Virus record (IMG/VR): IMGVR_UViG_3300019776_000521
Span: 9,556-73,555 of that record
Strand: one strand, 5' to 3'
Length of the DNA stretch: 64,000 nt
From: a virus
Below the pieces are notes generated by a model. That model saw nothing but the letters and a program-made list of their open reading frames with translations. It ran no database searches and had not been told where the DNA came from. Position 1 is the first letter of the stretch. Each line of letters begins with the position of its first letter. Both the position numbers and the translations under genes were made by a program. Shown in pieces: positions 2,301 through 60,602 of this stretch.

Positions 2301-2525
2301 ATGCTGCCTGACACGTTTCTACGTACAGAAGAAGTTCAAGCCCTGACCAAGCGGACGGTACGTCCAGCGCAGGTCAGGGTATTGAAAGCAATGGGCATTG
2401 AACACAGGGTACGTCCTGATGGCAGCGTTGCTATCCTCAGAGCACACATCTCCAAAGTGTTCGATGGCAATCCTGAAGTCACCCGTCAAACCAAAACAGC
2501 TACACCCAACTGGGATGCTATGTAA
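2301..2525 (+). CDS. DUF4224-like putative excisionase / recombination directionality factor
   Basis: Small basic protein FLxxEEVxxLT...QVRVLKAMGIEHRVRPDG; TAATG overlap with the integrase start. Confidence 0.75.
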   Translation: MLPDTFLRTEEVQALTKRTVRPAQVRVLKAMGIEHRVRPDGSVAILRAHISKVFDGNPEVTRQTKTATPNWDAM

Positions 2526-3616
2526 TGCCTCGCAAACGCAGCAAAGACAACAAGGGTCTACCTGCTCGCTGGAGACACACTCATGGAGGCTACTACTACC
2601 AGGTTCCTCCTGGCTTGGAGCACCTATGGGATGGCAAGAAAACCTTTCGTTTGGGAGCCAAGCTCAATGAAGCCTATCAAGTATGGGCATCACGCCTTGG
2701 CAAGGTAGATCAAGCCAAGACGATCGGACAACTGCTTGATCGCTATGCCCTTGAAGTTATCCCAGCCAAAGCAGCTGCAAGCCAAAACAGCAACCGCAAT
2801 CAGCTGCAGATGCTCAGGCGTGTGTTTGGTGAGCACCCTCTCCTTCCGTTTGTTCCCCAGCTGGTCTACCAGTACGTAGACAAGCGCAGCGTCAAGAAAA
2901 AGGATCCAGACACTGGCAAAGTCACTGGTGGAAGGATTGCAGCCCATCGTGAAATCGAACTGCTGTCGCATGCGTACACCAAAGCAGTCGAATGGGGCTA
3001 CATCGATCGCCATCCATTCAAGAACGAGGTAAGGCTCTCTGGTGAAAAGTCCAGAGACCGCTACATCGAAGATTGGGAAGTCATTGAGATTCTCTCATTG
3101 GCTTCACGTAGGAAGGCTGGAAGCGTTTTAATGATCCAAGCCTACCTTCGCCTCAAGCTCCTCACTGGAATGGCTCAGGGAGACCTTCTGAGGCTTCAGG
3201 AGAGCCATATCAAAGAAGACGGCATCCACAACCAACGGCACAAGACTGCAAACAGCACCGGCAAGAAGACCATTTACGAATGGTCACCCGAGCTTCGTGC
3301 TGCAGTAGTCCTGGCCAAGAGATCACGACCAGTGCACATCTCACCTTTTTTGTTCTGCAACAGAGACGGTGAGAGCTATGTGAACGAAGAAACTGGAGAA
3401 GCTGCTGGTTGGAAATCCATGTGGCAACGATTCACTCAACGAGTGATCAAAGAAACCAAGGTCACTGAGCATTTCACTGAACACGACTTTCGAGCCAAGG
3501 TAGCCAGTGATGCTAAGACTCTGGAACACGCAAGATCTCTATTGGCTCATGCCGATAGCAGAACTACTGACAAGGCTTACAGACGAAAGGCTGAGAGGGT
3601 TTCTCCTCTTCGATAA
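2525..3616 (+). CDS. int: Tyrosine recombinase / phage integrase
   Basis: N-terminal arm-binding-like region; HDFR (HxxR); LLAH...TTDKAY (H and Y). Box I reads TGMAQGD, with Ala at the usual Arg. Confidence 0.9.
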   Translation: MPRKRSKDNKGLPARWRHTHGGYYYQVPPGLEHLWDGKKTFRLGAKLNEAYQVWASRLGKVDQAKTIGQLLDRYALEVIPAKAAASQNSNRNQLQMLRRVFGEHPLLPFVPQLVYQYVDKRSVKKKDPDTGKVTGGRIAAHREIELLSHAYTKAVEWGYIDRHPFKNEVRLSGEKSRDRYIEDWEVIEILSLASRRKAGSVLMIQAYLRLKLLTGMAQGDLLRLQESHIKEDGIHNQRHKTANSTGKKTIYEWSPELRAAVVLAKRSRPVHISPFLFCNRDGESYVNEETGEAAGWKSMWQRFTQRVIKETKVTEHFTEHDFRAKVASDAKTLEHARSLLAHADSRTTDKAYRRKAERVSPLR

Positions 3617-3618
3617 AC

Positions 3619-3987
3619 ATGAAAATCAAACTGAGCGAAACCACACCGCTCCAGATCAACTATCTGGTGGCGAAGTGCCAAGGGGTGAAGTTGCATCCAG
3701 TACCACAAAGCGGAGTGATGGAGATTCATTTCTCAGAGCCGAATGGTTGCGCTACTTACCAACCATCGACCGACTGGGCCCAAGGTGGGCCGATCATCGA
3801 AAGAGAGAAAATTGAACTTAAATACCTTGGCTACGACAATCCCCCGTACTGGGGCGCGTTGAAGTTTTCCCCGAGCAGTTACGAGCGTAAAAAGGCTATT
3901 GGCCCCACACCCCTAATCGCAGCCATGCGCTGCTTCGTGGCCAGTCAGCTGGGCAATGAGATTGAGGTGCCTGATGGACTTATCTAA
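3619..3987 (+). CDS. NinX/DUF2591-like phage protein
   Basis: YQPSTDWAQGGPIIEREKI and GPTPLIAAMRCFVASQLG motifs. Confidence 0.8.
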   Translation: MKIKLSETTPLQINYLVAKCQGVKLHPVPQSGVMEIHFSEPNGCATYQPSTDWAQGGPIIEREKIELKYLGYDNPPYWGALKFSPSSYERKKAIGPTPLIAAMRCFVASQLGNEIEVPDGLI

Positions 3988-4189
3988 CTACGTGGTCTTG
4001 TACCGCATCGAGAAGATCATGACTCCGCTTGATACCCCCTTTGGCTTTCAATGCTGGGCAGACAATGCAGATCATGCCGAAGAACAGTGCATCAATGCCT
4101 ATCCAGACTGCGATGTAGTCTGGGTATGGGAAGGTCCAGAAGGTGTCGGTATGCAACCAGCTTTGGCTGACTACTGGGGGAACACCTGA
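3974..4189 (+). CDS. Hypothetical protein
   Basis: ATG 3974 after GAGGTG; FQCWADNADHAEEQC motif. Confidence 0.6.
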   Translation: MDLSNYVVLYRIEKIMTPLDTPFGFQCWADNADHAEEQCINAYPDCDVVWVWEGPEGVGMQPALADYWGNT

Positions 4190-4276
4190 TGGGCTACTGT
4201 GATCCCAAAGCCATACGCAACGGAAAGGCTTGGGCTGATGTCGTCAACAAGACGCCCATGAACCCACCCCCAAAAC

Positions 4277-4494
4277 CTGTACTATTGCCAAAACCCAGTT
4301 CTTTGAAAATCAAGGACTTACCGACTTAGGATGTGGCCAAAAATAGTACAGCCACCATCATCCAAGTTGCTGATTCCACAAAGGAAATCGAATCCAGGAC
4401 CATCTGGCTACGAACCAACAGTCTGAACCCGCAAAGCCAGTATTCATGCGGATCTCCAGACACTGCTGTAGTATTGAAAGGCTGTTGTACTATA
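4277..4494. other. Putative attP site
   Basis: Arm-type repeats CTGTACTATT 4277-4286, perfect inverted copy 4342-4351, degenerate copies 4466-4475 and 4485-4494; IHF consensus matches 4308-4320 and 4363-4375 (reverse); core TGGCTACGAACCAA 4405-4418. Confidence 0.75.
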
Positions 4495-4501
4495 GATGCA
4501 C

Positions 4502-4578
4502 GCGCCCGTAGCTCAGTTGGATAGAGCGTTCGGCTACGAACCGAAAGGCCGGGAGTTCGAGTCTCTCCGGGCGCGCCA
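4502..4578 (+). tRNA. tRNA-Arg (anticodon ACG)
   Basis: Full cloverleaf: acceptor GCGCCCG/CGGGCGC, D arm GCTC/GAGC, anticodon arm TTCGG-CTACGAA-CCGAA, T loop TTCGAGT, encoded CCA; 77 nt. Confidence 0.97.
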
Positions 4579-4583
4579 CCTCT

Positions 4584-5033
4584 TCACACCGTGTTGAGGC
4601 AAGCCATCTCACCATGCAGCTTTTGTGCTGCCCTGTTGTAGGCCACTGCAGCTTCTTCTGCAGTGTCAAACCTACCCAGGTAGTGAGGCTTCTGGTTGAT
4701 CTTGATCCTGGCCTCAAAACGACCAGCGTTCCTGTAGACCCCTTTGTACTTGATCTCGCCCCTTTGCTGAGGCTGGCGATTACAGGCATTGCCTGATCGA
4801 TCCGTGATTCTCAAGTTGGCTTTCTGGTTGTCCAACTTGTTGTGCTTGCGATGATCAACCACTTGATCCCCCACTGCACCCATCACTAGACGGTGCATGC
4901 GGATCTTTTTGCCTTTGTGGTTTGCTACTGCATAGCCTTTGTCAGATAAGTGCCAAGTAAATTGGCTCACTCTTTCAAAGTCTTCATCGTCAATTAAAGC
5001 AAACCCGCCTTCTACAATTGCAATTTCTTTCAT
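4584..5033 (-). CDS. HNH endonuclease with C-terminal AP2 domain (free-standing homing endonuclease)
   Basis: RMHRLVM...VDH...NKLDNQKANLR; YKGV...YLGRFDTAEEAAVAYNRAAQKLHGE. Confidence 0.92.
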   Translation of the reverse strand: MKEIAIVEGGFALIDDEDFERVSQFTWHLSDKGYAVANHKGKKIRMHRLVMGAVGDQVVDHRKHNKLDNQKANLRITDRSGNACNRQPQQRGEIKYKGVYRNAGRFEARIKINQKPHYLGRFDTAEEAAVAYNRAAQKLHGEMACLNTV

Positions 5034-5077
5034 ATGCCCCTTAATTTACGAACCAGTAGGCATTCTATCAAAACCAT

Positions 5078-5338
5078 ATGAACCAAGTAATCCCAATCCC
5101 ACCCATTGTCAGCACCGTAACCACTGTCCACGCAGTCGATCGCTGGAAAGAAGCCGTTGTCAACGAGCTAATGACTGCTCACATCTACGGAAGCAGCCAC
5201 CAACACGATCCCAAGAAAGCCATCCAAGATGTCATTTCCTGGCATGTGCAAGTAGCTTTGGACCCTCAAGTCTCCAGCGATGCTCAAAAGCTCATCGATC
5301 GTGGTGCAGCAGAAGAGCGTGCAAGGCTTCAGGGATGA
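5078..5338 (+). CDS. Hypothetical protein
   Basis: ORF with coupled downstream ORF. Confidence 0.6.
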   Translation: MNQVIPIPPIVSTVTTVHAVDRWKEAVVNELMTAHIYGSSHQHDPKKAIQDVISWHVQVALDPQVSSDAQKLIDRGAAEERARLQG

Positions 5339-5550
5339 GCCAGAAAGCTCCAGGAGACGCGATCGCGGCCAAGCAGGGCCATCGGTACACCTACAACAAT
5401 CACAGCGTCCTGGCCCTCAATACAGGCCGCATCGTCAGGATCCTGTCTTTTGATCCTGCCAAGCCTTGGTTTGGAAAGATCCAAAAAGTACCTGCTTGCT
5501 TTCTTACACCTGAGCCTATGGCCTACTTCCATGGAGAAATTCCACAATGA
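5335..5550 (+). CDS. Hypothetical protein
   Basis: ATGA overlap at 5335; 3' part of the listed 4939..5550 ORF. Confidence 0.55.
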   Translation: MSQKAPGDAIAAKQGHRYTYNNHSVLALNTGRIVRILSFDPAKPWFGKIQKVPACFLTPEPMAYFHGEIPQ

Positions 5551-5720
5551 CCACAAAAGCTATTTCCCCGTTCAGCCTGGACTACGTGAGCCAGCTGAAG
5601 CCAGAACGCAAACAACCCTTCAAGAGGGTTGTGTTGACTCAGCCACCTGTGAATGCCAGATCGAACATTGCCAGCGTGGATGAAGGCAAAGCTGCTCGGC
5701 TTCGTAAAGCCAACATCTGA
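5547..5720 (+). CDS. Small hypothetical protein (57 aa)
   Basis: ATGA overlap, GGAG RBS, ends abutting the Rz stop. Confidence 0.5.
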   Translation: MTTKAISPFSLDYVSQLKPERKQPFKRVVLTQPPVNARSNIASVDEGKAARLRKANI

Positions 5721-6227
5721 CTACCGGCTCAAAGCTTCCCTGGCTTTGTTGTACTGCCTGTAGCAGGCTGCAAGCTGTAGTCGAATGGTGTCGGCTCGGA
5801 GAGCTTCTTCCACATCCTCCGATCCAATCGTTCCAGGAAGCTGGGTTCCATCACTTCCCTGGGTAGCTCCTCCAGTGCTGGCAGCTGCGGAGGCTTTGGG
5901 CATTGGGGAACTTGTGGCTCCGTTTGCTTCAGCGTTGAGCAACCTCCTAAGAAGAGAATCACGCTGAGCAGTAAGATTCCTGATTGCTTCATTGGTTTCT
6001 TTCCGGGTTACTGCCGACGACAGGCCAAGATCCTGCTCCGTCTTTCTTACCGATTCGATCGCGGCTGCAACAGCTATCGCTGTTGCCGCTCGCTCACTTG
6101 CTATCTCCAATTCCAAGCCAGCGACTTCAAGCTGACTTTTGTGCAGGCGCATTGTCTGCGCTACCAGCAGACCGCCGATCACAACCAGCAATGCGATGCC
6201 GAGGTATTCTTTGATCGCATCAACCAT
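5721..6227 (-). CDS. Rz: i-spanin (Rz-like)
   Basis: N-terminal TM helix then coiled coil; directly downstream of the endolysin. Confidence 0.85.
   Translation of the reverse strand: MVDAIKEYLGIALLVVIGGLLVAQTMRLHKSQLEVAGLELEIASERAATAIAVAAAIESVRKTEQDLGLSSAVTRKETNEAIRNLTAQRDSLLRRLLNAEANGATSSPMPKASAAASTGGATQGSDGTQLPGTIGSEDVEEALRADTIRLQLAACYRQYNKAREALSR
5729..5992 (-). CDS. Rz1: o-spanin lipoprotein (Rz1-like) embedded in Rz
   Basis: Signal peptide with lipobox LGGC, Pro-rich mature part, nested in another frame. Confidence 0.85.
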   Translation of the reverse strand: MKQSGILLLSVILFLGGCSTLKQTEPQVPQCPKPPQLPALEELPREVMEPSFLERLDRRMWKKLSEPTPFDYSLQPATGSTTKPGKL

Positions 6228-6720
6228 TGATTACCTCCATGCAGGAGGCGTGTGATTTGAGCCTGTCTTTCCACAATCCAGAACAACTCCTGTTGCCTGG
6301 TGCAGAGCAATCCTGTCCATTGGACCTGTTCCACATCAGGATTGCGTTGCAGGCTCCTGCATAGTCTTCCGCGTTCAATCGCTTGACCAGAGTCGAATTG
6401 CAGAATGCACTTGAGCCAATGTTGTAGCTCAGGTTCACGTACAGATCGTACTCAGGCTGACTCAAGGGAACCTTGACGCATTGCTTTAAGGCTCCTTCAA
6501 ACTGGTTGGCATCAACCAGTGCACGCTGAATAGCGGGGACTACCTTGAGAGAGTCTCCCTGTTTCACACCTTCGGTCGTACCAAACCCAACGGTCGGTAC
6601 TTTCCATCCATAGGTGGGATCAGGATAAGCTTTCTCACGATAGTCTTCACGCTGAAGGATTCCCAGGAATCCAGCAGCTGAAAGCGCCAGTACGCCAACA
6701 ACCATTCGAGGATGCTTCAT
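6220..6720 (-). CDS. SAR endolysin, GH24 lysozyme
   Basis: Gly/Ala-rich N-terminal anchor, E...D...T triad (QRE...YPD...PT), YNIGSSAFCNSTL motif. Confidence 0.92.
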   Translation of the reverse strand: MKHPRMVVGVLALSAAGFLGILQREDYREKAYPDPTYGWKVPTVGFGTTEGVKQGDSLKVVPAIQRALVDANQFEGALKQCVKVPLSQPEYDLYVNLSYNIGSSAFCNSTLVKRLNAEDYAGACNAILMWNRSNGQDCSAPGNRSCSGLWKDRLKSHASCMEVING

Positions 6721-6950
6721 TCGTACATCCCCATTCGACGGTAGTGCTCAGCCTCTTCTCGCTTGTCCTGCTTGTGCTTGTAGTACCAGTTGATGGCAAA
6801 GCCTCCCAAGCCAAGAGTGATACCGAGAAACACTCCAAACTCGCTGGAAAGCAGCCACCCAAGGACACTGGTGCTTGCGCCTGTGTAGGTAGCTTTGCTG
6901 CCTACTGCTGACATCGTTGCATCGAATGTAGTCTGTTGTTCTGGTGTCAT
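6717..6950 (-). CDS. Holin
   Basis: 77 aa, TM segment, INWYYK plus charged tail; ATGA-coupled to the endolysin. Confidence 0.85.
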   Translation of the reverse strand: MTPEQQTTFDATMSAVGSKATYTGASTSVLGWLLSSEFGVFLGITLGLGGFAINWYYKHKQDKREEAEHYRRMGMYE

Positions 6951-7012
6951 AGATAAACTTTCTTTTTGGTTTTAAAGCAAATACTTGCTAAACATTGTAC
7001 GTTCACGCTTAT

Positions 7013-27895: not shown

Positions 27896-30800
27896 TTACT
27901 TCACAATTGCCATCGCAGTGTGCACCGTAGCCAAGTTGTCCAGTGCACCAAAGTACTGGAAAGCTCCAGAGTGCAATGGATTGTTTCCAATGTGCTGCGT
28001 AAACGAACTATCCAGAACGATGGGTCCGAGTTCCATGTAATGATTCAGTGCAATGGCTGACAGTACACGGGCCGGGTTCTCCCTGGCCAGCTTCAGCAGC
28101 ACCCGTTGAATGCGTAGGAAGTACTTGGTAAATGGCGTCAGGCCCATGTCGTCCGTGTACTGCAAACCACGGTGCATCGGGATGTCGTAGTTCACAAAGG
28201 CATCCGACGCTTCCTGAATTGCAGCTTCACGGCTCAACGGGTTCGTGCCCCTGCTCACCAGGTGCTGGTACAGCGTGTACCGAGCCACGAAGTCCGACAG
28301 CTGTGTAATGCGGCTCAGAGTCTGGTACATGTTGGTGTCATGCGTCATGTACACCGCCCTGCCTGCAGCACGAATCTTGGGGTTCAGCCTGCTGGTGAAC
28401 TTCTCCGTCTTTCTCACAAACTCACTCTTGTACGAGTAGATGTTTTCCTCAGCAGCAAGATCTTCCACGATCGTAGGCATCAGCCCTGCTTCAATCAGTT
28501 CCTTGACCGGATTCCTAGCAATCGCGTCTTTCAAGCGAACGATTTCATCCTTAATTTCCTTTTCCTTACCCAGTCCGTAATCGACCTCCAGCATCGTCTG
28601 CAGATCCGCCAAACGCTGGCTATCTCTCTGGTATGCCGTAGCACCTTTCAACGCCACCAGGTGATGCTGCAATACGTCCTTCAACGACACGCCTGACATG
28701 GCAAGCAGCGACAAGTTCGACCAGATGTTCCCAAGCATCACAAAGCCAGTCTTGACCACAATGATGTCTTTGGTCTCGGCTACCAATTCCTGCCATGCAC
28801 GTTCGCCCCTGGTGATCACTACGGCTGCTCTCTTGGCGTAATCCTCTGCGTCAGCTGCAGACAAGCCATGCCGCATGCCTGCGTAGTTTGCAAGCACTGT
28901 CTGCACCACATACACAAACAAGCCTTCCAGCTTGTTTCGTGCATCAGGATCCTTCTGGAACATCGACGCCAAAGTCAGCTTGCGATACCCAAACATGATG
29001 TCCAGTGAATCGCTGCGCACCTTCATGCCGTCCCTACCCCACACTGCCCTGATGTCTTTCTTCGTAGCATCAGGCAGTAAATCCCAGATCGCACGCATCT
29101 CAGGATCAGTGCTCCGATCGCCAACTTCAACGTAAGAATCCTTGCGGGTTGCGTACTCCAGTTCGTACTGTTCACGCAATACAGTGACTGCTTTTTTGTT
29201 CTGTTCCCGACTGGTCTCCTTGTCGTAGATCGAACCAGCAATCACACCGATCAGATTCTCAAACCTGTTGTCCCGCTCAAGCAGGTTGTCCTTGGTGGAC
29301 TCAGCCATCATGTAGCGCCAGTTCACGATCGCACCTGTCTCGTTGTAGACAGGAATCATGTGGTTTTCTCTTTCAGCTGACAGATCCCTACGCGGATCAC
29401 CCATACCTTGCATAGCAGCCAGCTTTTCGTTGGTGATGGTCGCTTGCATGCTTGCATTCTCAAGCCCGTTCAGCGTGTTCACGTTTACGTAGCCGCTGTG
29501 CTTTTTGCTGCCCCTAGACTTCATGCTGGACAAGGAAAACGCACCCGAAAGCCAAGGAGACAAGCCACCGTCCCTGAGCACGTAGATTCGCTTAGTTTCG
29601 GTATCCGGGTCAGCACGATCGTTAGACACCAGTGCGCCTGCCGAGTAGCCCTGGTTCACAAGCTCCTTGCCTTCTGCCTCGGTAGCAATCTTGATCGCTG
29701 TATGCGGGTTTAGGATCTCCGGCGTGTAGCCATGGATCATCAGCGCAGGATTGCCTTTGAACAACCGTTGTAGCGACTCCTCTTCCAGCTGCTTGTGCAG
29801 CTTCAACAGGAACTCAACACCGTTGCCATTGTTATCAGTTCGACTGTTTTCAGTCCTGAAAACTTCTTTGGCTTGGCTCAAGTGGTCACCTGCTGTGTAC
29901 TTCAAGGCGTACAAAGAGATCAATGCTGCAATCACAGGCTCTGCCTGTTTTGCTTCAGCCTCAGAGATCTGCCGCTGGTACTGAGTGTTGGCCATCCTGG
30001 AGATCAAGTGTGCATTGAGCATCAGCACAGGAATTCTGGCTCGTCCAGTTGCTTTGAAGTAACCCAAACCATTGATCTGTTCGATGTACTTGTCTTTGTA
30101 TTTAGAGGTCAGCTGAGACTCAAAGTTTTCAATGGCTTTGTCTACTGCCTTGTAATCCCCAACCAGCTTCTCCAAATCAGCAACGCTGTAGTGATTCAGC
30201 AAGTTGTGCAAACCAGTTCTTAGAAACACAGCAGACACTGCAGCTTTGGCTTCCTTGCTCATTGCTTTGCCATTCTGAAACACGCTCAGCACAAGCTTCG
30301 AGTGCTGCGTGATGATGTTCTTGCGCTCACCTTCATGGCGCTTGGTTTCACGCAGCAGAGCATTGAACTTGTCCAACGGTCCCTTCAGTTCATTGAGCAA
30401 ACTTGCTGCAATGCCTTGCCTGCCTTTGAACTGCTGATCACGAAGAATTTTCAATCCGTCAATCACTTGCTCCACCCGATCATTGGCAATGGTTCGAGCT
30501 ATGCCCCCTGCTGCTTGAACAAACGCATTGCCGTTGTTACGAACAAATGACGAACCAGCAAGGTCACCTGCTTTTTCCCGGATGCCATCTGCCAGCGCTT
30601 TGACGCCTCTTTCAACTGGTTCAAGAATGCTGCGCTCTGTTGCACGCTTCTTGATGAGCACTCGCTTTTTGGCTTCGATGTCCACCAGCTGGCCAACCAA
30701 CGCTTCCAGCTTGGCGTCAGCGTTCTGACCAGCGTAGGTGTGCGTGAACTTCTCATTGAAGAAATTCAAAATGCGCTCAAAGATGCTTTCGAGCTTCTCG

Positions 30801-33800
30801 GTGAACGTCATGTCCTGGGCTGCTTTGCGTGAAGCAACCTTGGTTGCTCTTTTCAACAGCGTATTGAACTTTTCGCTGGCCAGGCCCAGGGCTGCAAATC
30901 GAGCCAGGTAATCCGAGCGATCGCCGTTGTTGCTCTCCAGCTTGAACACAAAGTCGTAGTCTTCCTGGGACGCAAAATCCGATGGCTTGAGCGTATTGCG
31001 CATTTCAAGGTACAGATCAGCCAGCTGCTTGTAGGCAATCTTGGTTTGGGACTCGTTGCCGTTCAACGCTGCCCGCACGGTGGCTTCCACCTGCTGCATG
31101 GCAAAGTCTTCCTGTGCACTACCTGCAAACCCAGACGCCACAATCGATGATGCAAAGGGAGCGTTGCCTGTTTCCATGGCTTTGAGCCATACCGCCAAGG
31201 GATTGCCTGCCTCGGTCTTGCGCATCTGCTCTGCAAACGCACCAAACGGGCCGTGGAGCTTCTCTACGATGCCACCCAGTAGGTTGGCCAGGTGCTCCTG
31301 GAACGAAGGCTCTACGGAGCCATTGGCCAAGGCGTTGTGGATGTCCAGGGTCGTGTACTTGTCGATCTGCTCGACGGTCTCCTGAGCAAGGTTCAGGTCG
31401 GCGTTGCTTGTCTTCTTTGCTTGAGCCGCTTCCGCAAACAATCCCGACACATTTGCAACCAGCACAGCCATGCCGTTGTTGAGATTCTCGTCAGGCTTTT
31501 TGAACAGCAGTTGCGTCAGCGTAGCGATGAACTTCTTCATGCCGGTGATCAGCGAGGTGCTGCCGGTCTTGGACTCCATGGTGATCTTGCTCAGCACATC
31601 ACGCTGCAGGCCCAGGTTGGTCATGCCCCAAGCCACGAACTCTTGAACGTTGGCCAAAGCTGCCGTGTAGTCGTTCAGTCCGTTTTGCTTTGCATACTCT
31701 TGAGCCTTGACCCGCAGAGCTTCAAGCTCAGCCACCAGTGCTGCTGCTTCGCCGGTTGGCTTGTCGATCACCCGTGCAATCGCTGCGTGCACCAGTTCAT
31801 GCAGCAATGTTTCGGCTGTCAAACCAGAGTTCTGAAACTCTGGACTGAGTACGTAGATTTCCTCCTGGCCATTCTTGACGACGTACCACCCACGGGAATT
31901 GGTTGTGGGCTTTTCCAGAACCATGCTTTCCGCTGTCTCGGATGTCACAAACTTGATCTTCAAGTCAGGGCTAACCACCCGACTGACCAAAGCCAGGATC
32001 TTGCGATTGATTGCATTCATCCGTCCAGGTGCACCAAGCAGTGCAATCACTTGGGACGCCGAGGCATTCGGATTGGCTTTGAAAAACCTGACCAGATCGC
32101 CATCACTTTCAATCTTTGGCGTACCGATTGGTCCAAACAGACTATCGGCAGTAGCAACAGGCTTCTCGGTTGCAGGAGCAGGCTTTTCGGAAACACTCAT
32201 GCCCAGGGCTTCAGAGATGATCACAAGAGCTTCTTGTTCCTTGGCAGAAAGCCCCTCTTTCAACGCAGACTGCATTGCTGCAGCATCACTACGATCGGCT
32301 TCGGTGACTTCGTAATTGCCACCTTCGAGTGCGTACTGATCAACCGAACCCATCTGGCTCAATGCTTCAAGACGCACACTGTCTGCGCTGAAAGCCGTGC
32401 TTGTTGCGTTTTGCAGCATGTCGCTCAGCACCGTGTCAGGGCTCATCTCGTTCTCACCTGCAAACTTGTTCAACGCTTGCGTGAGATTCTCGACAACCTG
32501 AACAGGAAGATCCTTCTGAGCCAACAGCTCAGACAAGCCAACAACCGTGCGAGACAACATGTTCGCCATCTCCGTTGCCGGAGAGTAGTTCAGCAGTGCA
32601 CTCCAAGTAGCTTGATTCAGGTTCTGTGCTGTCTGACTAAATCCGCCCAAACCAGATCCATGAGCATCATGGATGTTTAGCACTTCATTGCCATCTGCAG
32701 CGTTGTGTGAGATTGCAGAGTCCAGCGAATGCGTGGACATCACGACCATTGCTACGCCAGGATTGCTTTCGATCGTTTCAAACGCAGTAGCTTCGACCGA
32801 TGATTGCTCAACGTAGCCGCCTTTCTTCTTGCTCCAAACCTTGGTTCCTTTGATTGCAGAACCAAACTTGACATTGCTTTTGAACGTGCTGCGAGTGCTG
32901 AGCTTGCGGCTTGATTTCGATGCAAACAGGCCAGCACGCAAGGAACCACTTTCCTTGGACATGAGCGTGTGCATCACAGGAGCAAGCTTGCTCACTCGTT
33001 TCTTGAGTTCTTCCTGCTGCTTGAGTGTCAGATCGTGAATCGGACGGTTCTTGCTATCTACTGCAATTTCACCAGACGCCACCAACTCAGCCAGGTACGC
33101 ATCACGCAAGCCCATGTACGCTGCGTTGTACAGCTCGAATGAGAACTGAGCACTCTTGTTCAGTGCATCGCGTTTGCTGATGAAATTGCCAAAGTCAGCG
33201 GACATTGTTTCCGACACTGCTTTGCCCAGCGTGTTCTTGAAGCTGTTCTTTAATGCCTTGATCTGATCTGAATCAAACTCGTAAGCAAGCAGCTTTTCCA
33301 CAGACATCAATGAAAGCTTGGCGCCATCACCACCCCTCAGCAATACATTGATGTTGTTGATAGTGGCTCGAATATCTGCTTTGCCTGCAGCCACATCTTC
33401 CATGCTGGAGTAGATGGATTCAATAAAGCCATCGGCCATGCTGTCTACAGCCGAACCAACAGAGGAGCCAAAGATCATCGCCGTCAAAGGCGTCTTGATG
33501 ATGTTTCGACGCTTCTTGAGAATCTCAGGTGTCTCAAGAGTCAGATTCCCGGTAAACGCATACACAGCGTTCAAAGTTGCACCAATCTTGCTGTCTTTCA
33601 GCAGCATCTTCTGCACGGCATTCGTCATGTGCAATGCAGTGATCTCGTATAAATCTTTGGCACCAGGCTTACCACGCCAAACGTTGTAGTTGGTGTTGGG
33701 ATTGCTTTTCTCGAAGAACCCACCACGATTGAGCAAGCCAAACAAATCCTTCACAGACTTTGCTGCACCAAGCAGGATATGGCTCAGCATGGGGCCATTG

Positions 33801-36800
33801 GTTACCCCGTCTACCTCGCCCATCATCTGAACGGAAAAGCTGTTCTTGCCATCAAGCTGCGCTTGTGCTTCCGTAGCCAAAGCCATCAGTGCATCCAGCG
33901 AATGAAAATTCATTCCGCCTTTCTTGACTCCAGCAAGCAGGACTTTTCCTTCTTCTGAAGTGATGCCACCTTCAAACACTGTCTTGCGCAACACTGCTAC
34001 AGCGGCTTTGATCTCCGGCTGATTGACGTAGGATTCATAAGCAGCCAACGAAGTCTTGTTGGCTTGCTTGTCTGTCTTGACTCCCAGACCTTCAAGAACC
34101 CTGAGCCGAAAGTTGTCCATCTGATCGGCATTGCCCATATCGACCATCGTGGTCCATGCGTTGCGAAATAGCATGAAGCGATGGATCTTGCTGGTCTGCG
34201 GATTGATGACGTTGGTGGCAATACCAACTCGTTGCTGCTTCCACACCGAATGCTCAAAATACATTGGAGCTTCGATGTCAGCCATGCTTTTGACAAACTC
34301 CATGAACCTATCCAGTTCACGAAGCAGCCCATCGTTCTTTGCCTGCAAACCTGGCTTGTTGACTGCATGAGTTTTGGTGTCGGAAATCTCAACGACACCT
34401 GCAATGCCTTGAAGCACATCGTCACCAAGCTGCGTGATCAGCTGCCACATGTCTTGCCGCACATAGTTGGCTTCTGCATTCTTGGCAGCAACAATCTTTG
34501 CAAGCTTCTCCGGTACGTTCTGGTTGGTGTTGCGTGTCTTTTTCTGCACAAACGGAACTGGCTCAAGGCTGGGTTCCTTCAAACCAGACTCTACTGAAAA
34601 CAGCTTGTCGAGCACTCCTTGCGAACCAATGGATGCCTTGACGATCCGCTCTGCATCAGCAGGCAAAGTGCTCTGCGCATTCCTGGCAAGTTTGACGAAA
34701 TGAAATTCTGCGTTCGTGTTCGTGCTTTCCTTGTTCGTCAACGCAGCCATGGTCTCACCTGAGACTGTTGACCTTTCAAGCAGTCCTAGATCCATCATCA
34801 ACTTCCATGCATGTGCACCCAGGGAAGCTTCCAGGTCAGGCATCAGATTGACTGGGGCATCCTTCGACACTTTGAAACCAAGCGCCTGTACAACTGCTTG
34901 GCCAAGCGAGTTGCGCACCAGGTTTTCCCTTACGCCTACGTTGCCGAGCACCATGCGTTCAGCTTGCGAGACGCTGACAGTTTCATCCCGATCGAGAATC
35001 GCGTTGATGTCTTCGTCAGTGTTGTACAGATTCTTGGATGCAGCTTCTGCAACCCAGCTGAACACTGCATAGCTGATTGCAGTCTTCACATTCTGATCAA
35101 CATCTAGCTTTCCATCGTTCTCTTGGATCAGGTACTGCATCATGTCTTCGTACCGGAACTCTTTGGTACGAGCACTCAGATTCTTTTGAATCAACCCTTG
35201 CCATTGCTGGTTCAGTTCTTGAAACAGCTGCAGCACTTCTTGCTGCTTGCCGCTGAGAGACTTGATGCCAAGGAAATCCAGAACATTCTGAGCACCCTGG
35301 CTCAGGAAGTTTTTCACCTTCACTAAAGGCCGCTCAGTCAGATCGCCTTCACGACTGGCTTGCTGAGTGAAGAAGTCTGCAATGAGGTTACGAAGAGGAA
35401 ACGATGTCCCCTCCGTGGACTTTTCCTGAAGCGTCGTAACAGCACCAGGCTGCGTAGACAGTGCACTTGCGACCTCTTCAGAAACTGGAACAACCTCTGA
35501 AGGGGTCGTGCTAGTCTGCTCAGTAGACTGCAGTTGACCTTGATTTGTCTCAGGAGACGCAACAGTTGTCCTAGTAGAGCCGGAGGCTCCTACAGACGCA
35601 GCAGGCTCACCCGAAACACTTTCTACGGTTTGTCCAGCGGCGGATTCAGTTGCTGCGGTTGCTGGTACTGAGGGGTTGACGGCTCCTCCTTCAACTCCTC
35701 CGGTCGGCTGACTCGTACCTGCTTCAGTCGAGGGCGCAGTTTCTGTGCGATTCGGACTGGCTTGTAATCCTTCGAGTGTTTGCGATACGTTCGAGACATT
35801 ACTGACTCCATTGGAAATAGGTTGGGCAAACTTCAGCCCGTAGGCTGCTCGAAGCTCTGTTGCCGCCTTGGTCAGTGCATCCGATTCAATCTGAATGTTA
35901 TCAACAATTTTGGTGCTGTTCCTGACAATATCCAGGCCACCATTTTGCTGACGTTCTTTTTGACTGGGCCATTTCCCAGTTTCAATCGACCAGCTTCCAT
36001 TGCCATCACTAACAATGCGCCGCTCCTGCCCGTCTTTCTCAAACAGGGCTTTTGCTTCAGCAGCCACTTGTGCTTTCTGCTGATGGTCGCTGACAAAGTT
36101 GTCCAGCAGCTGCAACTGCGCAGTAGCGGCTTTTGAGTTGTTTGCTGCCAGTGCAGTCGTGACATTGGCTCGGTATTGCTGAATACCGATGTTCCCTTTG
36201 CCGCCATAGAAAACCTCCTTCGAGACCTTATCCATGGTCTTGAGTTGGTTCTCTGCTTGCCGTGCTTGCGTGAATGCCCGCAGGTAGCCCCGCTGCGGGT
36301 CCGTCAGGCCGTTTGTCGTGTCATTGGCAAGCGACGCAGCCAGGTTGGTATCCAGGCGCTCTGGCGTGGCCATAGACAGGTTGATGATGCTGTCCGCTGC
36401 AGCCTGTGAAGCTACCGGATCAGCAGCAGTGATCTTTGCAGCCTCAGCTTCTACATCCAGCTCCTTGGATTGGTTTTCCTGATTGAAGTTATTCAGCACC
36501 TCCTGAGCTGATGCAATCTGCTCATCAAGCCGAGAGATCTGCTTTTGCAACCTTGGACCAGCGTCTGTCTCCTTGGCCAGGGTTGCAAGTTCAGCTTCCA
36601 GAGCATCGACGGTAGGCTGATCTCCAGCTTCTCTGGCTTGAACCAGTTGAGCCATGTAGCCAGCCACAGCTTCAGGCGAGATAGAAGCGTAGTTTTCTTC
36701 TGCTTTTTGTTTCTGCTCAAGCAGATCAGACACGATGCCCGATGCCTGCTCAAACTTTGCTTGTTTCAGTTCGGGCGTAGCGGTCGGCAATTGGCTGTGG

Positions 36801-38092
36801 CCATACAAAGCCGATACAGCCTGATCTGGGGCGTAGGACGGGCTTTTGGGATCCAGGAAGGTAGTGACATCACCTGAGACAATCGCAGCTTGTAGGGCTT
36901 CTGCTTTCGTTGCGTCGGCTACTTTCTTTTCAAATTTAAGCAGAGACATTTCGGATGCAGACTTCAAAGTCTGAATACCACCACCCATGATTCCGCCCAT
37001 GAAGGCACCCTGACCAGCAGCAGCACCAACGCCATCAAAAAGCTCTTGTGCTGGCTTAATCTCCTTGACTGCAGAATTTCCAAAATAGCGTCCGCTACCC
37101 TCTTCTATTCCTTCCTGCCCAGCTTCTCCAACAAATGCTTTGGGTACAGCAACAAAACCACCTGCTTTCTTGCCAATCAGAGCTTTCTCAATTGCAGTAC
37201 CACCAGGAAGTGCAGAAGAAAACAACGAAACTGCTCCTGCTTTAAGCGTAGCTTCTCCGGCCAACTGCGATGCAATAGCTTGCTTGGCTTGTTGAGGACC
37301 AAGGCTTTCAGCCAAAGCTACATACTCAGGGTTTTGATCCCAAACAGCATCAGGCAACGACATCATTCGCTGCATCGTGTCTGAACCAACATCGACACCT
37401 TGCAACACAGCGCCCGTACCAACAGCAGCAGCTGTGCCACTCTTTTCCACAGCAATCTGTCCGGCTTTGGTTGCTGCAACTTTAGGCAGTGTTTTGGCTG
37501 TAGCAGCAGCAGCTAGTTCAGCACCACGACCTACTTTGCTCATCACTCCCAGTTGCGCTGCTTGTTGAGCCAAAAACTCAGGAATGCTTCCTGGGTCTTT
37601 TGCAGCTTCCCAGAATGCAGCACCAAACTCTGCAGCAACTTGCCCAGCTACACCTGTTACGCCATCACCTAAAGCTTCCCGTGCTGCTTTGCCCGCTTTG
37701 CCAGCAACCACTGCTTTTTCTTGATTTTTGGCTTGAGCAAAAGCTGATTTCAGTTTTTCTCGTTCATCAGACATTTTGCTGATGTCTTGTGTTTCAGGCC
37801 CGTACCAATCACCAGTGGTAGCTTTGTCGTAAACCATCGCTGGCAACTTGGCCAGTCCATCGATACCTTGAACAGCTGACAAAGCCAAGTCTTTTGTGTA
37901 GTCCCCCCACGACCTACCTTCATCAATGGCTTGATCTCTGGCTACTTGCGCAGTGTTTTGCGCCAACGCTTGCCGGTAAGTTTCCAAGCCAGCAAGCTTC
38001 TCTTGACGAGCTTGAAGAATTTGATCAATCTTTTCAGGATTCGGCGCACCATACTTTTGAAGCAAATACTGATCAACATTGAAGGTGGCCAT
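27896..38092 (-). CDS. Virion-encapsidated RNA polymerase (N4 gp50-like), 3398 aa
   Basis: Size; EVDGVTNG (motif A), RNIIKTPLTAMIFG (B), IHDA (C); HELVH zincin-like motif; no Cys seen downstream of MATFNV, while the listed 5' extension has several. Confidence 0.95.
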   Translation of the reverse strand: MATFNVDQYLLQKYGAPNPEKIDQILQARQEKLAGLETYRQALAQNTAQVARDQAIDEGRSWGDYTKDLALSAVQGIDGLAKLPAMVYDKATTGDWYGPETQDISKMSDEREKLKSAFAQAKNQEKAVVAGKAGKAAREALGDGVTGVAGQVAAEFGAAFWEAAKDPGSIPEFLAQQAAQLGVMSKVGRGAELAAAATAKTLPKVAATKAGQIAVEKSGTAAAVGTGAVLQGVDVGSDTMQRMMSLPDAVWDQNPEYVALAESLGPQQAKQAIASQLAGEATLKAGAVSLFSSALPGGTAIEKALIGKKAGGFVAVPKAFVGEAGQEGIEEGSGRYFGNSAVKEIKPAQELFDGVGAAAGQGAFMGGIMGGGIQTLKSASEMSLLKFEKKVADATKAEALQAAIVSGDVTTFLDPKSPSYAPDQAVSALYGHSQLPTATPELKQAKFEQASGIVSDLLEQKQKAEENYASISPEAVAGYMAQLVQAREAGDQPTVDALEAELATLAKETDAGPRLQKQISRLDEQIASAQEVLNNFNQENQSKELDVEAEAAKITAADPVASQAAADSIINLSMATPERLDTNLAASLANDTTNGLTDPQRGYLRAFTQARQAENQLKTMDKVSKEVFYGGKGNIGIQQYRANVTTALAANNSKAATAQLQLLDNFVSDHQQKAQVAAEAKALFEKDGQERRIVSDGNGSWSIETGKWPSQKERQQNGGLDIVRNSTKIVDNIQIESDALTKAATELRAAYGLKFAQPISNGVSNVSNVSQTLEGLQASPNRTETAPSTEAGTSQPTGGVEGGAVNPSVPATAATESAAGQTVESVSGEPAASVGASGSTRTTVASPETNQGQLQSTEQTSTTPSEVVPVSEEVASALSTQPGAVTTLQEKSTEGTSFPLRNLIADFFTQQASREGDLTERPLVKVKNFLSQGAQNVLDFLGIKSLSGKQQEVLQLFQELNQQWQGLIQKNLSARTKEFRYEDMMQYLIQENDGKLDVDQNVKTAISYAVFSWVAEAASKNLYNTDEDINAILDRDETVSVSQAERMVLGNVGVRENLVRNSLGQAVVQALGFKVSKDAPVNLMPDLEASLGAHAWKLMMDLGLLERSTVSGETMAALTNKESTNTNAEFHFVKLARNAQSTLPADAERIVKASIGSQGVLDKLFSVESGLKEPSLEPVPFVQKKTRNTNQNVPEKLAKIVAAKNAEANYVRQDMWQLITQLGDDVLQGIAGVVEISDTKTHAVNKPGLQAKNDGLLRELDRFMEFVKSMADIEAPMYFEHSVWKQQRVGIATNVINPQTSKIHRFMLFRNAWTTMVDMGNADQMDNFRLRVLEGLGVKTDKQANKTSLAAYESYVNQPEIKAAVAVLRKTVFEGGITSEEGKVLLAGVKKGGMNFHSLDALMALATEAQAQLDGKNSFSVQMMGEVDGVTNGPMLSHILLGAAKSVKDLFGLLNRGGFFEKSNPNTNYNVWRGKPGAKDLYEITALHMTNAVQKMLLKDSKIGATLNAVYAFTGNLTLETPEILKKRRNIIKTPLTAMIFGSSVGSAVDSMADGFIESIYSSMEDVAAGKADIRATINNINVLLRGGDGAKLSLMSVEKLLAYEFDSDQIKALKNSFKNTLGKAVSETMSADFGNFISKRDALNKSAQFSFELYNAAYMGLRDAYLAELVASGEIAVDSKNRPIHDLTLKQQEELKKRVSKLAPVMHTLMSKESGSLRAGLFASKSSRKLSTRSTFKSNVKFGSAIKGTKVWSKKKGGYVEQSSVEATAFETIESNPGVAMVVMSTHSLDSAISHNAADGNEVLNIHDAHGSGLGGFSQTAQNLNQATWSALLNYSPATEMANMLSRTVVGLSELLAQKDLPVQVVENLTQALNKFAGENEMSPDTVLSDMLQNATSTAFSADSVRLEALSQMGSVDQYALEGGNYEVTEADRSDAAAMQSALKEGLSAKEQEALVIISEALGMSVSEKPAPATEKPVATADSLFGPIGTPKIESDGDLVRFFKANPNASASQVIALLGAPGRMNAINRKILALVSRVVSPDLKIKFVTSETAESMVLEKPTTNSRGWYVVKNGQEEIYVLSPEFQNSGLTAETLLHELVHAAIARVIDKPTGEAAALVAELEALRVKAQEYAKQNGLNDYTAALANVQEFVAWGMTNLGLQRDVLSKITMESKTGSTSLITGMKKFIATLTQLLFKKPDENLNNGMAVLVANVSGLFAEAAQAKKTSNADLNLAQETVEQIDKYTTLDIHNALANGSVEPSFQEHLANLLGGIVEKLHGPFGAFAEQMRKTEAGNPLAVWLKAMETGNAPFASSIVASGFAGSAQEDFAMQQVEATVRAALNGNESQTKIAYKQLADLYLEMRNTLKPSDFASQEDYDFVFKLESNNGDRSDYLARFAALGLASEKFNTLLKRATKVASRKAAQDMTFTEKLESIFERILNFFNEKFTHTYAGQNADAKLEALVGQLVDIEAKKRVLIKKRATERSILEPVERGVKALADGIREKAGDLAGSSFVRNNGNAFVQAAGGIARTIANDRVEQVIDGLKILRDQQFKGRQGIAASLLNELKGPLDKFNALLRETKRHEGERKNIITQHSKLVLSVFQNGKAMSKEAKAAVSAVFLRTGLHNLLNHYSVADLEKLVGDYKAVDKAIENFESQLTSKYKDKYIEQINGLGYFKATGRARIPVLMLNAHLISRMANTQYQRQISEAEAKQAEPVIAALISLYALKYTAGDHLSQAKEVFRTENSRTDNNGNGVEFLLKLHKQLEEESLQRLFKGNPALMIHGYTPEILNPHTAIKIATEAEGKELVNQGYSAGALVSNDRADPDTETKRIYVLRDGGLSPWLSGAFSLSSMKSRGSKKHSGYVNVNTLNGLENASMQATITNEKLAAMQGMGDPRRDLSAERENHMIPVYNETGAIVNWRYMMAESTKDNLLERDNRFENLIGVIAGSIYDKETSREQNKKAVTVLREQYELEYATRKDSYVEVGDRSTDPEMRAIWDLLPDATKKDIRAVWGRDGMKVRSDSLDIMFGYRKLTLASMFQKDPDARNKLEGLFVYVVQTVLANYAGMRHGLSAADAEDYAKRAAVVITRGERAWQELVAETKDIIVVKTGFVMLGNIWSNLSLLAMSGVSLKDVLQHHLVALKGATAYQRDSQRLADLQTMLEVDYGLGKEKEIKDEIVRLKDAIARNPVKELIEAGLMPTIVEDLAAEENIYSYKSEFVRKTEKFTSRLNPKIRAAGRAVYMTHDTNMYQTLSRITQLSDFVARYTLYQHLVSRGTNPLSREAAIQEASDAFVNYDIPMHRGLQYTDDMGLTPFTKYFLRIQRVLLKLARENPARVLSAIALNHYMELGPIVLDSSFTQHIGNNPLHSGAFQYFGALDNLATVHTAMAIVK

Positions 38093-38129
38093 ATAGTCTT
38101 TCGGTCTGAAGGAAGTGGTAGCTATTCTA

Positions 38130-38157
38130 AAGAAAAAGCCGGGAGTTACCCGGCTTT
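38130..38157 (-). terminator. Terminator-like hairpin upstream of vRNAP
   Basis: Minus strand AAAGCCGGG-TAACT-CCCGGCTTT followed by TTCTTT. Confidence 0.7.
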
Positions 38158-38159
38158 GA

Positions 38160-40124
38160 TTATTGCCTTGCTCTAAACACTGGTGGATAAACAGGATTGG
38201 GGTCTTTCCACAAGCCACGCTTTTCTTTACGTGCAGTGTTTTCTGCAATGTTGAGATCAACGTTCCTGAGAGTTTGCTGCGCAAACGCTTTGTACACCCA
38301 AGCTGCACCTTGCTCTACCATGGCATGGTCAAGACCTTTGCCTTCAATCTCAACCTGACAAATAGATCTACCGGCGTACTTGCCATCAGGACGAACAATT
38401 CTGATGTTCACTTCTTTGTTGAGAATCAGCTCTTCCAGACGTTTCTTCGATTCCTCTCCAAACGGCTGACCATTTTTGTTGTACTGCTTCTTTGCAGTCT
38501 CCGGTGCGTCGATCGTATCTATCCTGCAGTTGATTCCGTTTTCAGAAGAAAACGTGTCTCCATCAGCAACGTAGCTAACTACTGCTTTTACCCCGGTGCC
38601 TTTTGGAATAGCACCAGGAGCAGCTTTTACTGCGCTGACTGGTTGCTTCCATTTGACATCTTTGGGTAGCTCTATCGGATCAGTTTTAGCTACCGGAGAA
38701 CCATTGACAGGATTGAGAGCAAAGCCAGTCGAATCAGCTACGGCTGGCTTTGATTTTGACGAAGTAGAAAAACCGCTGTTGAAGCTAACAGCAGCTGGAG
38801 CCTCAGTTACCTCTTTTTTTTTTTCCGGTGCGCTTGTTTCAGCTTTTGCACTGGAGATAGCTCCGTACCTCTGAAATTCTTCGATCAGCGGATCAACGGC
38901 CAGAGTCTGAGGAACATCAATCAGACCACCTCGTCCAACAATCCTCTGTGTTGGTCCACTAACCTTTGGTTTAGGCAGCAGACTTTCAATCTTCTTATCA
39001 AAGCTGTCAGCGTAACCTTTGCTACCAAACCAGTTGGTATCAACTGAAGAAAGCAAAGCCGATTTCACAACACTAAGCGGAACAGGTACGTTGACTGTAA
39101 TCGGCTTTCCATCTTCACCAATGGTAGTCCGAGTGATACCATTTTTGGCAAGATTGGAAATTCTTTCCATCAGGTATGCACGACCGTTGCTGTCGTCTTT
39201 GCCACCAATTCCGTTAGTCTTTGCAATGGTAGCAAGCTCTACAAGACTGTCTGGAGTCAGCAGCCCACCTTTGTACACGTTGTCTTGTAACGCAAGATCT
39301 AGCTTCTTGACGTTTTGAGCAGCAGCACGTTCACGCTCTGCTCGGTCAGCAGTCAATCTTGAAGCGTTTGTTGAAGCTTCTGAAGCACTGATGCGGGCTT
39401 GTATTTCTTTTCGAACCAAGTCGGCATTGTTAACTGTGTTTTGAAGACTTTGGTTATCAAGACCAGCTTTGGTAACAGCAAGAGGTCGCAGCAAAGCACG
39501 TTGTGATTCTTCTGTGCCTCGACGAGTTTCTTCTGCTACTCGGCGCTTCTCTTCTTCAGTATCAAAACCAAACCTTGTTGAAGCACGATCTCGTTCTGTC
39601 AGAGTCTGCTGCCGCGTATCGATCGTCTTTGCCAGGTTCACGGCTTCCCGCAGATCAGGTCGAGCAGCCAGCATCTCGCCTGCACGCTTTGGATCCTGCA
39701 AAGCCATGAGGTTGATCGCACGAACGTCTGCTTCCTGAGCAGCATCCAGCATCGTGTTCTTGTACGTGATGCCTTGAACGTCACGCTGCTGGAGCGTATT
39801 AACGCGCCCATCACGAAGAGCATTCACTGCAGCCCGATCAATCACAGCGCCATTTGCAGCAACAGCTTGATCCAGTGCACCAGACCTGTTCAAAACGTTG
39901 AACTGGTCCACGTTTTCAGCTTGATAAATCTTGCTCAACGCATCTTGCGTAGCAGCTTGATCTTGTCGTTTCCACAAAGCCTGATCGAAAGTATCGCTTT
40001 CTTTGAGAGTGCTTTTCAGGCTGTCAAACGCTCCAGCAAAAGCCTGTTGCGCATAAGCAAGCGGACGACTGGCATCTGCCAGGGAAGGTCCGGTAACGGT
40101 ACGCCAAGTGATGGGGGTAGCCAT
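38160..40124 (-). CDS. N4 gp51-position putative ejection protein with C-terminal thermonuclease (SNase) domain
   Basis: Synteny and MATPITWR start; DGDT, RIDTIDAPE, QPFG, GKYAGR, MVEQGAAWVY, ARKEKRGLW. Confidence 0.88.
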   Translation of the reverse strand: MATPITWRTVTGPSLADASRPLAYAQQAFAGAFDSLKSTLKESDTFDQALWKRQDQAATQDALSKIYQAENVDQFNVLNRSGALDQAVAANGAVIDRAAVNALRDGRVNTLQQRDVQGITYKNTMLDAAQEADVRAINLMALQDPKRAGEMLAARPDLREAVNLAKTIDTRQQTLTERDRASTRFGFDTEEEKRRVAEETRRGTEESQRALLRPLAVTKAGLDNQSLQNTVNNADLVRKEIQARISASEASTNASRLTADRAERERAAAQNVKKLDLALQDNVYKGGLLTPDSLVELATIAKTNGIGGKDDSNGRAYLMERISNLAKNGITRTTIGEDGKPITVNVPVPLSVVKSALLSSVDTNWFGSKGYADSFDKKIESLLPKPKVSGPTQRIVGRGGLIDVPQTLAVDPLIEEFQRYGAISSAKAETSAPEKKKEVTEAPAAVSFNSGFSTSSKSKPAVADSTGFALNPVNGSPVAKTDPIELPKDVKWKQPVSAVKAAPGAIPKGTGVKAVVSYVADGDTFSSENGINCRIDTIDAPETAKKQYNKNGQPFGEESKKRLEELILNKEVNIRIVRPDGKYAGRSICQVEIEGKGLDHAMVEQGAAWVYKAFAQQTLRNVDLNIAENTARKEKRGLWKDPNPVYPPVFRARQ

Positions 40125-60593: not shown

Positions 60594-60602
60594 GGAGCCA
60601 TC

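Follow-up and report, generated by a model that had tools for sequence, protein, structure and literature searches.

A phage tRNA beside a tRNA-Arg(ACG) attachment core: probable tRNA-dependent lysogeny in an N4-like phage

How would a host cell keep a working tRNA-Arg(ACG) once a phage had integrated through an attachment site that carries little more than the anticodon arm of that tRNA? The question is raised by positions 4277-4578 of a viral sequence window of 64,000 nucleotides, the whole stretch of DNA analyzed here, which corresponds to bases 9556-73555 of the 73,555-bp IMG/VR record IMGVR_UViG_3300019776_000521. Within this region an isolated anticodon stem-loop, the core of a candidate phage attachment site (attP), lies just ahead of a complete phage-encoded tRNA-Arg(ACG). 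An initial annotation had proposed that integration here breaks the host tRNA-Arg(ACG) gene and that the phage copy, landing just downstream of the host tRNA promoter, takes its place. What the annotation states about the sequence itself holds throughout, and the evidence assembled below favors that proposal: with a probability of roughly 0.7, the attP breaks the host tRNA-Arg(ACG) gene and the adjoining phage tRNA compensates for the loss (tRNA-dependent lysogeny), in a temperate N4-like phage.

The mechanism envisioned is simple. A lambda-type integrase would act on the tRNA-Arg(ACG) gene of the host and recombine within its anticodon loop. The attP of the window lineage would have kept a 14-bp core and lost the tRNA 3' half that its siblings carry and, since only the 14-bp core remains, integration would split the host gene and leave no working copy at either junction. 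The phage tRNA would end up 126 bp past the point where the host tRNA used to begin; transcription reading through from the host promoter could express it there, and it would take over the decoding of CGU, CGC and CGA codons.

The putative attP common core, TGGCTACGAACCAA, occupies positions 4405-4418 on the plus strand and matches the anticodon stem-loop of host tRNA-Arg(ACG) without a mismatch, being made up of the loop CTACGAA and 3-4 bp on each side. As the annotation had indicated, no tRNA 3' half follows; the next bases are CAGTCTGAACCC, and a degraded or truncated tRNA around the 14-mer was ruled out by the lack of any Rfam tRNA match at E <= 1. Outside the tRNA gene itself, the 14-mer is the best match to the host tRNA-Arg(ACG) in the 73.5-kb genome, but its blastn-short E value of 0.015 is modest alone, and the decisive support for the attP identification therefore comes from relatives.

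The surroundings of the core are those of a complex attP, and both the four arm-type repeats and the two integration host factor (IHF) consensus sites of the annotation were located. On the P arm, the first arm-type site (TGTACTATTG, 4278-4287, plus strand) lies at -129 from the core, and the second is inverted (4342-4351, minus strand) at -64. The P' arm carries a direct pair on the plus strand, TGTAGTATTG and TGTACTATAG, 19 bp apart at 4467-4495 (4467-4476 and 4486-4495), or +60/+79. Exact copies of TGTACTAT number three in the 64-kb window, all inside this one stretch of 216 bp, with 0.58 expected window-wide; the motif TGTASTATWG has three matches against 0.08 expected, a count that none of 100 shuffles reached. 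One IHF-consensus site (AATCAAGGACTTA, 4308-4320, plus strand, -99) is an exact match to WATCAANNNNTTR, and the other (4363-4375, minus strand, -44) has one mismatch. The IHF consensus alone is weak evidence, with five exact matches in the window against 2.4 expected; the positions of the sites are nonetheless conserved in related attPs. A 48-nt spacer of unrelated sequence (4419-4466, plus strand), in which no tRNA was detected, stands where sibling attPs have the tRNA 3' half and a terminator.

Relatives of the integrase were found at 43 loci in bacterial genomes and 27 loci in viral contigs. The closest are five viral loci, L046-L050, with integrase identities of 73-80%; two of these loci come from contigs of 70 kb. 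In all five, as in the window, the 11-base sequence GGCTACGAACC lies on the plus strand 400-1000 bp after the integrase gene (int). In four (L046, L048, L049 and L050) the core runs on as a full tRNA-Arg(ACG) 3' half ending in CCA, past which come a hairpin, its T run and the arm repeats; L047 ends at a contig edge after 23 matching bases. The same arrangement of core and 3' half, on the other strand, is found in five more distant relatives (L053, L058, L063, L068 and L069). All told, the window 14-mer is placed exactly where nine related phages have their attP core, and identity to the tRNA starts at the same place, in agreement with the annotation's assignment of the core to a host tRNA-Arg(ACG) target. 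Of these nine, eight hold the entire tRNA 3' half, the truncated L047 being the ninth. The left flank of the core, GGACCAtCTGG, is homologous to GGACCAgCTGG of the sibling L046. In the window, tRNA identity stops after CCAA, and tRNA positions 44-76 and the terminator are missing.

On its left side the core has exactly the family layout (-129, -99, -64, -44). An arm site near -129 (-126 to -130) is present in seven of the nine related attPs, L050 and L068 being the two in which no such site was recognized, and the inverted site at -63/-64 was found by script in five of nine, L058 and L068 having a motif of their own by eye. An IHF-consensus site at -97 to -100 occurs in all 10 attPs (seven exact, three with one mismatch), and one at -43/-44 on the minus strand in seven of 10. 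The differences are confined to the right side. There the 19-bp-spaced arm pair lies at +104/+123 in L046, L048, L053 and L069 and at +82/+101 in L063, so that the window pair is 44 bp closer than that of L046 (about four helical turns) and the L063 pair 22 bp closer (about two turns). An IHF-like site at +49 or +59 is present in seven of 10 attPs. Arm-site sequences vary among attPs (TGTACTAT, TGTGCCAT, TGTATCAT, TGTCCCAT, TGCGTAAT) yet are uniform within each, which argues that integrase binding is under selection and that the sites co-evolve with the integrase.

Simulated integration shows what the shortened core would mean for the host. Phage and host sequences were recombined in silico at the shared core, using a host locus in which tRNA-Ser(GCT) precedes tRNA-Arg(ACG) (L088), and the junctions were scanned with ARAGORN. 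For the siblings L046 and L049, tRNA-Arg(ACG) was rebuilt at its original place. For the window there was no tRNA at the attL junction and none in attR, as expected if integration breaks the host gene. The simulated attL has the phage tRNA 126 bp past the start of the host tRNA and oriented as that gene is, bearing out the position that the annotation had predicted for it. The plus strand of 4419-4466 is without a terminator-like or promoter-like site, and read-through from the host tRNA promoter is plausible because no such plus-strand site separates the core from the phage tRNA. One weak promoter-like site lies left of the core (4303-4332); the total of three such sites, against 1.4 expected, is not above chance.

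The phage tRNA-Arg(ACG) itself (4502-4578, plus strand) is complete, with an encoded CCA and the anticodon stem TTCGG/CCGAA given in the annotation; it was recovered by ARAGORN and by Rfam, with a tRNA score of 68 bits against a gathering score of 29. It begins 83 nt past the 14-mer in the same orientation, directly outside the P' arm, and is the sole tRNA that ARAGORN found in the window or the genome. It shares the 11 bases of GGCTACGAACC with the core and is 84% identical to the host-type tRNA of one bacterial locus (L006). In bacteria, CGU, CGC and CGA are read solely by tRNA-Arg(ACG), whose position 34 is inosine, and CGT, CGC and CGA make up 61% of the arginine codons of the phage. Five viral contigs (L073-L077) carry a tRNA-Arg(ACG) that is 91-92% identical to the phage tRNA and has the same TTCGG/CCGAA stem; with their common upstream flank, divergence past the 3' end and no related integrase, these resemble host tRNAs that border other integrated elements. 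A search for the origin of the phage tRNA gave no match at E <= 1e-25 in 401 sampled genomes from the phylum of one complete host chromosome (G003), an uninformative result.

Comparison with the siblings also indicates how the tRNA arrived. The next gene that the window shares with L046 begins its match at 5335, and the distance to it from the core is about 480 bp longer in the window, a difference equal to the block of tRNA and HNH endonuclease gene minus 44 bp; relative to the siblings, the two were inserted together. Near-complete siblings have no tRNA-Arg: one genome (G406, 96% complete) has only tRNA-Asn and tRNA-Tyr, and another (G408, 95%) has no tRNA. Contigs from other metagenome runs hold diverged relatives with the same core, non-tRNA flank, tRNA and HNH gene. 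In a check of sequencing runs (share of sampled words at most 0.15; contigs from four runs), X5 record 18 was contiguous over 4393-5064, and the X1 and X2 records and X6 record 26 covered the core and right flank with four differences each. Because independent runs show it, the window arrangement is not an assembly accident. The left loose ends of these contigs, among those listed, resemble diverged P arms and not a host tRNA 5' half; the contigs are free attP forms.

The nature of the host target comes from the bacterial loci, which are labelled mostly Burkholderiales, with some labels outside that order (the labels include Gallionellaceae, Methyloversatilis, Massilia, Pandoraea, Paraburkholderia, Undibacterium and Collimonas). 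ARAGORN was run on 42 of the 43 loci, leaving out one of 768 bp (L034), and an intact tRNA was typically found on the opposite strand 76-241 bp after int. That tRNA is Arg(ACG) in seven loci and Arg(TCT), Ser(GGA) or Lys(CTT) elsewhere. At one locus (L004) an island is bounded by a full tRNA-Arg(ACG), 6 kb from int, and by a 47-bp repeat of the tRNA 3' half, and on the complete 4.38-Mb chromosome of G003 a 49-bp repeat lies 51.8 kb from the tRNA. The arm CTTGGCTACGAACCAAG, which the annotation had given as that of Burkholderiales tRNA-Arg(ACG), was present in six of nine tRNA-Arg(ACG) genes on related-integrase loci, the other three having CCTGG...CCAGG. By homology to these prophages at tRNA-Arg(ACG) in betaproteobacterial genomes, the bacterial attachment site (attB) of the window phage would be the host tRNA-Arg(ACG) gene.

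The same genomes narrow the site of crossover and give a view of gene copy number. Remnant 3'-half copies in prophage-host genomes begin at tRNA positions 29-33, which places the crossover at or after the anticodon loop. With this left limit from relatives and a right limit of 43/44 from the window, strand exchange would be confined to the anticodon stem-loop. Full tRNA-Arg(ACG) genes number one each in four proxy genomes (G001, G002, G003 and G005) and three in a fifth (G004). One of these, the 7.1-Mb G002 (contigs C5, C9 and C22), has six separate 3'-half copies, starting at positions 31-33, beside its one full tRNA-Arg(ACG), and the gene seems to be a very busy integration site. In a separate observation, a perfect 7-bp stem on the same loop (CTGTTGG-CTACGAA-CCAACAG) was seen at about 1255-1285 of a metagenome contig (L083) whose 2.3 kb hold neither a tRNA nor a related integrase; this may be a chance occurrence or another isolated anticodon-arm site.

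The integrase (2525-3616, plus strand; 363 amino acids) matches phrog_1 at E 2.6e-27. Its family profile aligns to residues 1-237 of lambda Int (E 3.6e-5), including the arm-binding and core-binding domains and reaching R212/K235, and by this alignment, together with the four arm sites and two IHF-consensus sites at positions conserved in the family, it is a lambda-type integrase with an N-terminal arm-binding domain and a complex attP. The alignment keeps K240, H320, R323, H342 and Y352. An arginine two residues before the catalytic lysine, R238 (QRHKT), is found in all six aligned sequences that lack the canonical first active-site arginine (window, L046, L049, L005, L007 and L026); the other six aligned sequences keep the canonical residue and have Pro or Thr at the R238 position. 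Since R238 is present in all six without the canonical arginine, and three of these are located in prophages at tRNA-Arg, the active-site arginine may have been relocated to R238 in this group. A search of the Protein Data Bank with the single integrase sequence as query returned only spurious matches, to ribosomal proteins. No serine recombinase was found in the genome.

Judged by its gene content, the window phage is N4-like (Schitoviridae-like). It encodes a 3470-amino-acid virion RNA polymerase of N4 type (27896-38308, minus strand; phrog_2206, 2078 bits over residues 77-3463), both subunits of a two-subunit RNAPII (phrog_2166 and phrog_2051; 59458-61664, plus strand), and a portal (phrog_1216), TerL (phrog_38) and further structural proteins. 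A DNA polymerase, a Dda-like helicase and an ATPase were also identified in the PHROG scan. The 73,555-bp record is rated 100% complete by CheckV and classed as linear. The module of excisionase gene (xis), int and attP, with xis and int some 800 bp upstream of the core, has the DNA polymerase gene on one side and the lysis and tail genes on the other, and the siblings L046 and L049, both on 70-kb contigs, carry the same module.

Several observations weigh against tRNA-dependent lysogeny in this phage. No lysogen or attL was found in the bacterial, viral or metagenome contigs searched. Among viral contigs, window-type junctions numbered zero, both for an exact 20-mer of core and flank and for a gapped pattern of core, 35-65 nt and arm pair, searches from which the phage's own record may have been excluded. 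In metagenome contigs an 18-mer junction pattern matched six loci, which were rejected as unrelated: none had a tRNA, and neither the small genes nor int, xis or the HNH gene had homologues there. No integrase at the 43 bacterial loci exceeds 70% identity over the matched part or 67% over full length, and in none of these loci does the core adjoin int on the plus strand. No repressor was recognized among the 40 of 87 open reading frames (ORFs) scanned with PHROGs. The P' spacing of the window is unlike that of most relatives, and its P' side, like that of L053 and L063, has no IHF-like site. The integrase scores 20.9-22.4 bits against Pfam PF00589, under the cut-off of 27.1, and has Ala followed by Gln (A216, Q217; TGMAQGD) at the position of lambda R212. 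Lastly, one proxy genome, G004, has three tRNA-Arg(ACG) genes. The sequences themselves establish the anatomy of the site, the homology of its core and arms to sibling attPs, the missing 3' half, the matching tRNA and the simulated junctions, along with a single gene copy in most proxy hosts. We infer that the integrase is active, that the host has a single copy of the gene, that its promoter drives the phage tRNA and that lysogens need this tRNA.

A bolder version of events, which we consider unlikely, is that integration amounts to a gene swap, in which a phage allele without the core-type sites of this integrase family takes the place of the single tRNA-Arg(ACG) of the host and comes under the host promoter. 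The phage allele does have the stem CGG/CCG next to the loop, as against TGG/CCA of the host core-type sites. If this were true, deletion of the attL end of the prophage would be closed to the lysogen, and competing elements that use this very busy site would find no attB left, giving the phage both a hold on its host and exclusive use of the site. 

Also improbable is the idea that the attP is decaying in a lineage drifting toward lytic growth, the tRNA being an ordinary one, for translation or against anticodon nucleases, that arrived with the HNH endonuclease. N4-like phages are mostly lytic. In the passages considered here, Zheng et al. (mSystems 2023, PMC10654107) report integrases as well as N4-like proviral regions found integrated, but no experiment that tests lysogeny. 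The missing canonical arginine, the score under the Pfam cut-off and the lack of a recognized repressor in the ORFs scanned all fit such decay, as do the absence of sibling-group prophages from the 43 bacterial loci and the single insertion that brought tRNA and HNH gene together relative to L046. That said, nothing is degraded in the core, the four arm sites or the two left IHF sites, each of which keeps exactly the position it has in the family, the int and xis reading frames are open, and siblings with a canonical attP have the same unusual active-site residues. Moreover, the genome's only tRNA, just 83 bp away from the core, has exactly the anticodon of the gene that is targeted, and this architecture recurs in diverged relatives from other runs.

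Only slightly less probable is the suggestion, which we likewise doubt, that the host has several tRNA-Arg(ACG) genes, so that one may be broken, the phage tRNA is dispensable and its position is an accident of hitch-hiking. The three full genes of G004 give this some substance, but four of five proxy genomes have one copy, and the suggestion leaves unexplained why a phage without the 3' half carries a cognate tRNA when two near-complete siblings with the 3' half carry none. Crossover in the anticodon loop of the phage tRNA itself (4533-4539), which would yield two complete hybrid tRNAs and reduce the 14-mer to a relic, is very improbable even though the tRNA contains the same 11 bases: the arm and IHF distances (-129, -99, -64, -44) fit the 14-mer and not a loop 126 bp further right, sibling cores and the 14-mer have homologous left flanks, the DNA to the right of the tRNA is HNH coding sequence on the other strand, and matches to TGTACTAT or TGTASTATWG in the window are confined to the four sites at 4278-4495.

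A classification published by Williams in NAR in 2002 is said to include integrases that cross over in the anticodon loop, with the gene restored by a duplicated 3' part. The window phage shares its integrase family, target, crossover and arm/IHF layout with restorers of this canonical kind (L046, L048-L050, L053, L058, L063, L068, L069 and the prophages at L004-L007); unlike them, its attP is without tRNA positions 44-76 and the terminator.

Lysogeny that depends on a phage tRNA was described in 2024 by Guerrero-Bustamante and Hatfull (mBio) in actinobacteriophages including Fionnbharth, LeBron, Cain and Gaia (PMC10865867). According to the text of that paper drawn on here, phages with a cognate tRNA have cores of 8-17 bp and siblings without one have cores of 33-52 bp; the targets listed are tRNA Lys, Ile2 and Leu, and the authors pose as a question how far the phenomenon extends beyond actinobacteriophages. 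Measured against the same text, the likenesses are several. The window phage has a lambda-like tyrosine integrase, arm-type sites and, by homology, an attB overlapping a host tRNA gene; its core is short (14 bp), the tRNA is not rebuilt in the simulated junctions, and the phage tRNA has the same anticodon without being a copy of the host gene; and close relatives have long cores (about 47 bp in the window's siblings) without the tRNA. The setting differs, in that the phage is N4-like, its host is probably one of the Burkholderiales, the target is tRNA-Arg(ACG), and the case is known here from sequence alone. The window phage varies the system described in that paper by having its tRNA immediately beyond the P' arm and pointing the same way as the broken gene, unlike Fionnbharth, whose tRNA is reported there to lie elsewhere with its own promoter (PMC10865867). 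It is this placement that could allow host-promoter read-through to express the phage tRNA.

Two other accounts bear on the case. Prophages of S. meliloti (PMC11476347), as far as that report is represented here, are likewise a proteobacterial example known from sequence; they were seen integrated, with junctions, unlike the window phage, which is known as a free attP with sibling attPs as controls, and the tRNA, host class and phage type all differ. The N4-like viruses of Zheng et al. (PMC10654107) have N4-like genomes with an integrase, as does the window phage, which adds an attP and putative tRNA compensation that the relevant text of that account does not describe. In the literature searched, supplements excluded, no link of tRNA-dependent lysogeny to N4-like or Burkholderiales phages was found.

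The window phage, then, is probably a case of tRNA-dependent lysogeny in an N4-like phage. The phenomenon has been demonstrated only in actinobacteriophages, and the present candidate, for which good controls exist, comes from quite another setting: its phage is an N4-like podovirus that probably infects freshwater Burkholderiales and is aimed at the main arginine tRNA. Its tRNA-rebuilding siblings constitute a natural control set, and the two attP types are a ready pair with which to ask whether a captured host promoter expresses the phage tRNA. For this integrase family, the comparison also limits the crossover to the anticodon stem-loop, and it suggests what function a tRNA gene could serve in an N4-like genome.

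The remaining genes around attP are closely packed. The excisionase-like gene (2301-2525, plus strand; 74 amino acids) matches phrog_1266 (E 2.5e-9) and Pfam DUF4224 (42 bits), and its stop overlaps the int start. Past int lie a NinX-like gene (3619-3987, plus strand; Pfam Phage_P22_NinX, 70 bits) and two small plus-strand genes (3956-4189 and 4189-4329) with no PHROG or Pfam family match. The stops and starts of the small genes between int and attP overlap, as read from the sequence, and the last of them spans the first arm site and the first IHF site. An intergenic stretch of 172 nt separates it from the tRNA-Arg(ACG). Beyond the tRNA, the HNH endonuclease gene converges from the minus strand (4584-5033; phrog_99, E 5.2e-38) and has no relatives in the viral contigs. 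Window positions 3000-7000 have no near DNA match among deposited phages.

Two minor observations lie outside the attachment region. The phage of locus L046 (genome G406) has its tRNA-Asn(GTT) and tRNA-Tyr(GTA) genes side by side (L102, 276-440), far from attP and unrelated to the integration target. In the window, the match to the RNAPII large subunit is split, with positions 2-338 of phrog_2051 matched at 60603-61664 and positions 339-401 at 62288-62677. Between the two parts sits an HNH endonuclease ORF (61839-62309), which may represent a homing endonuclease insertion or an intron.

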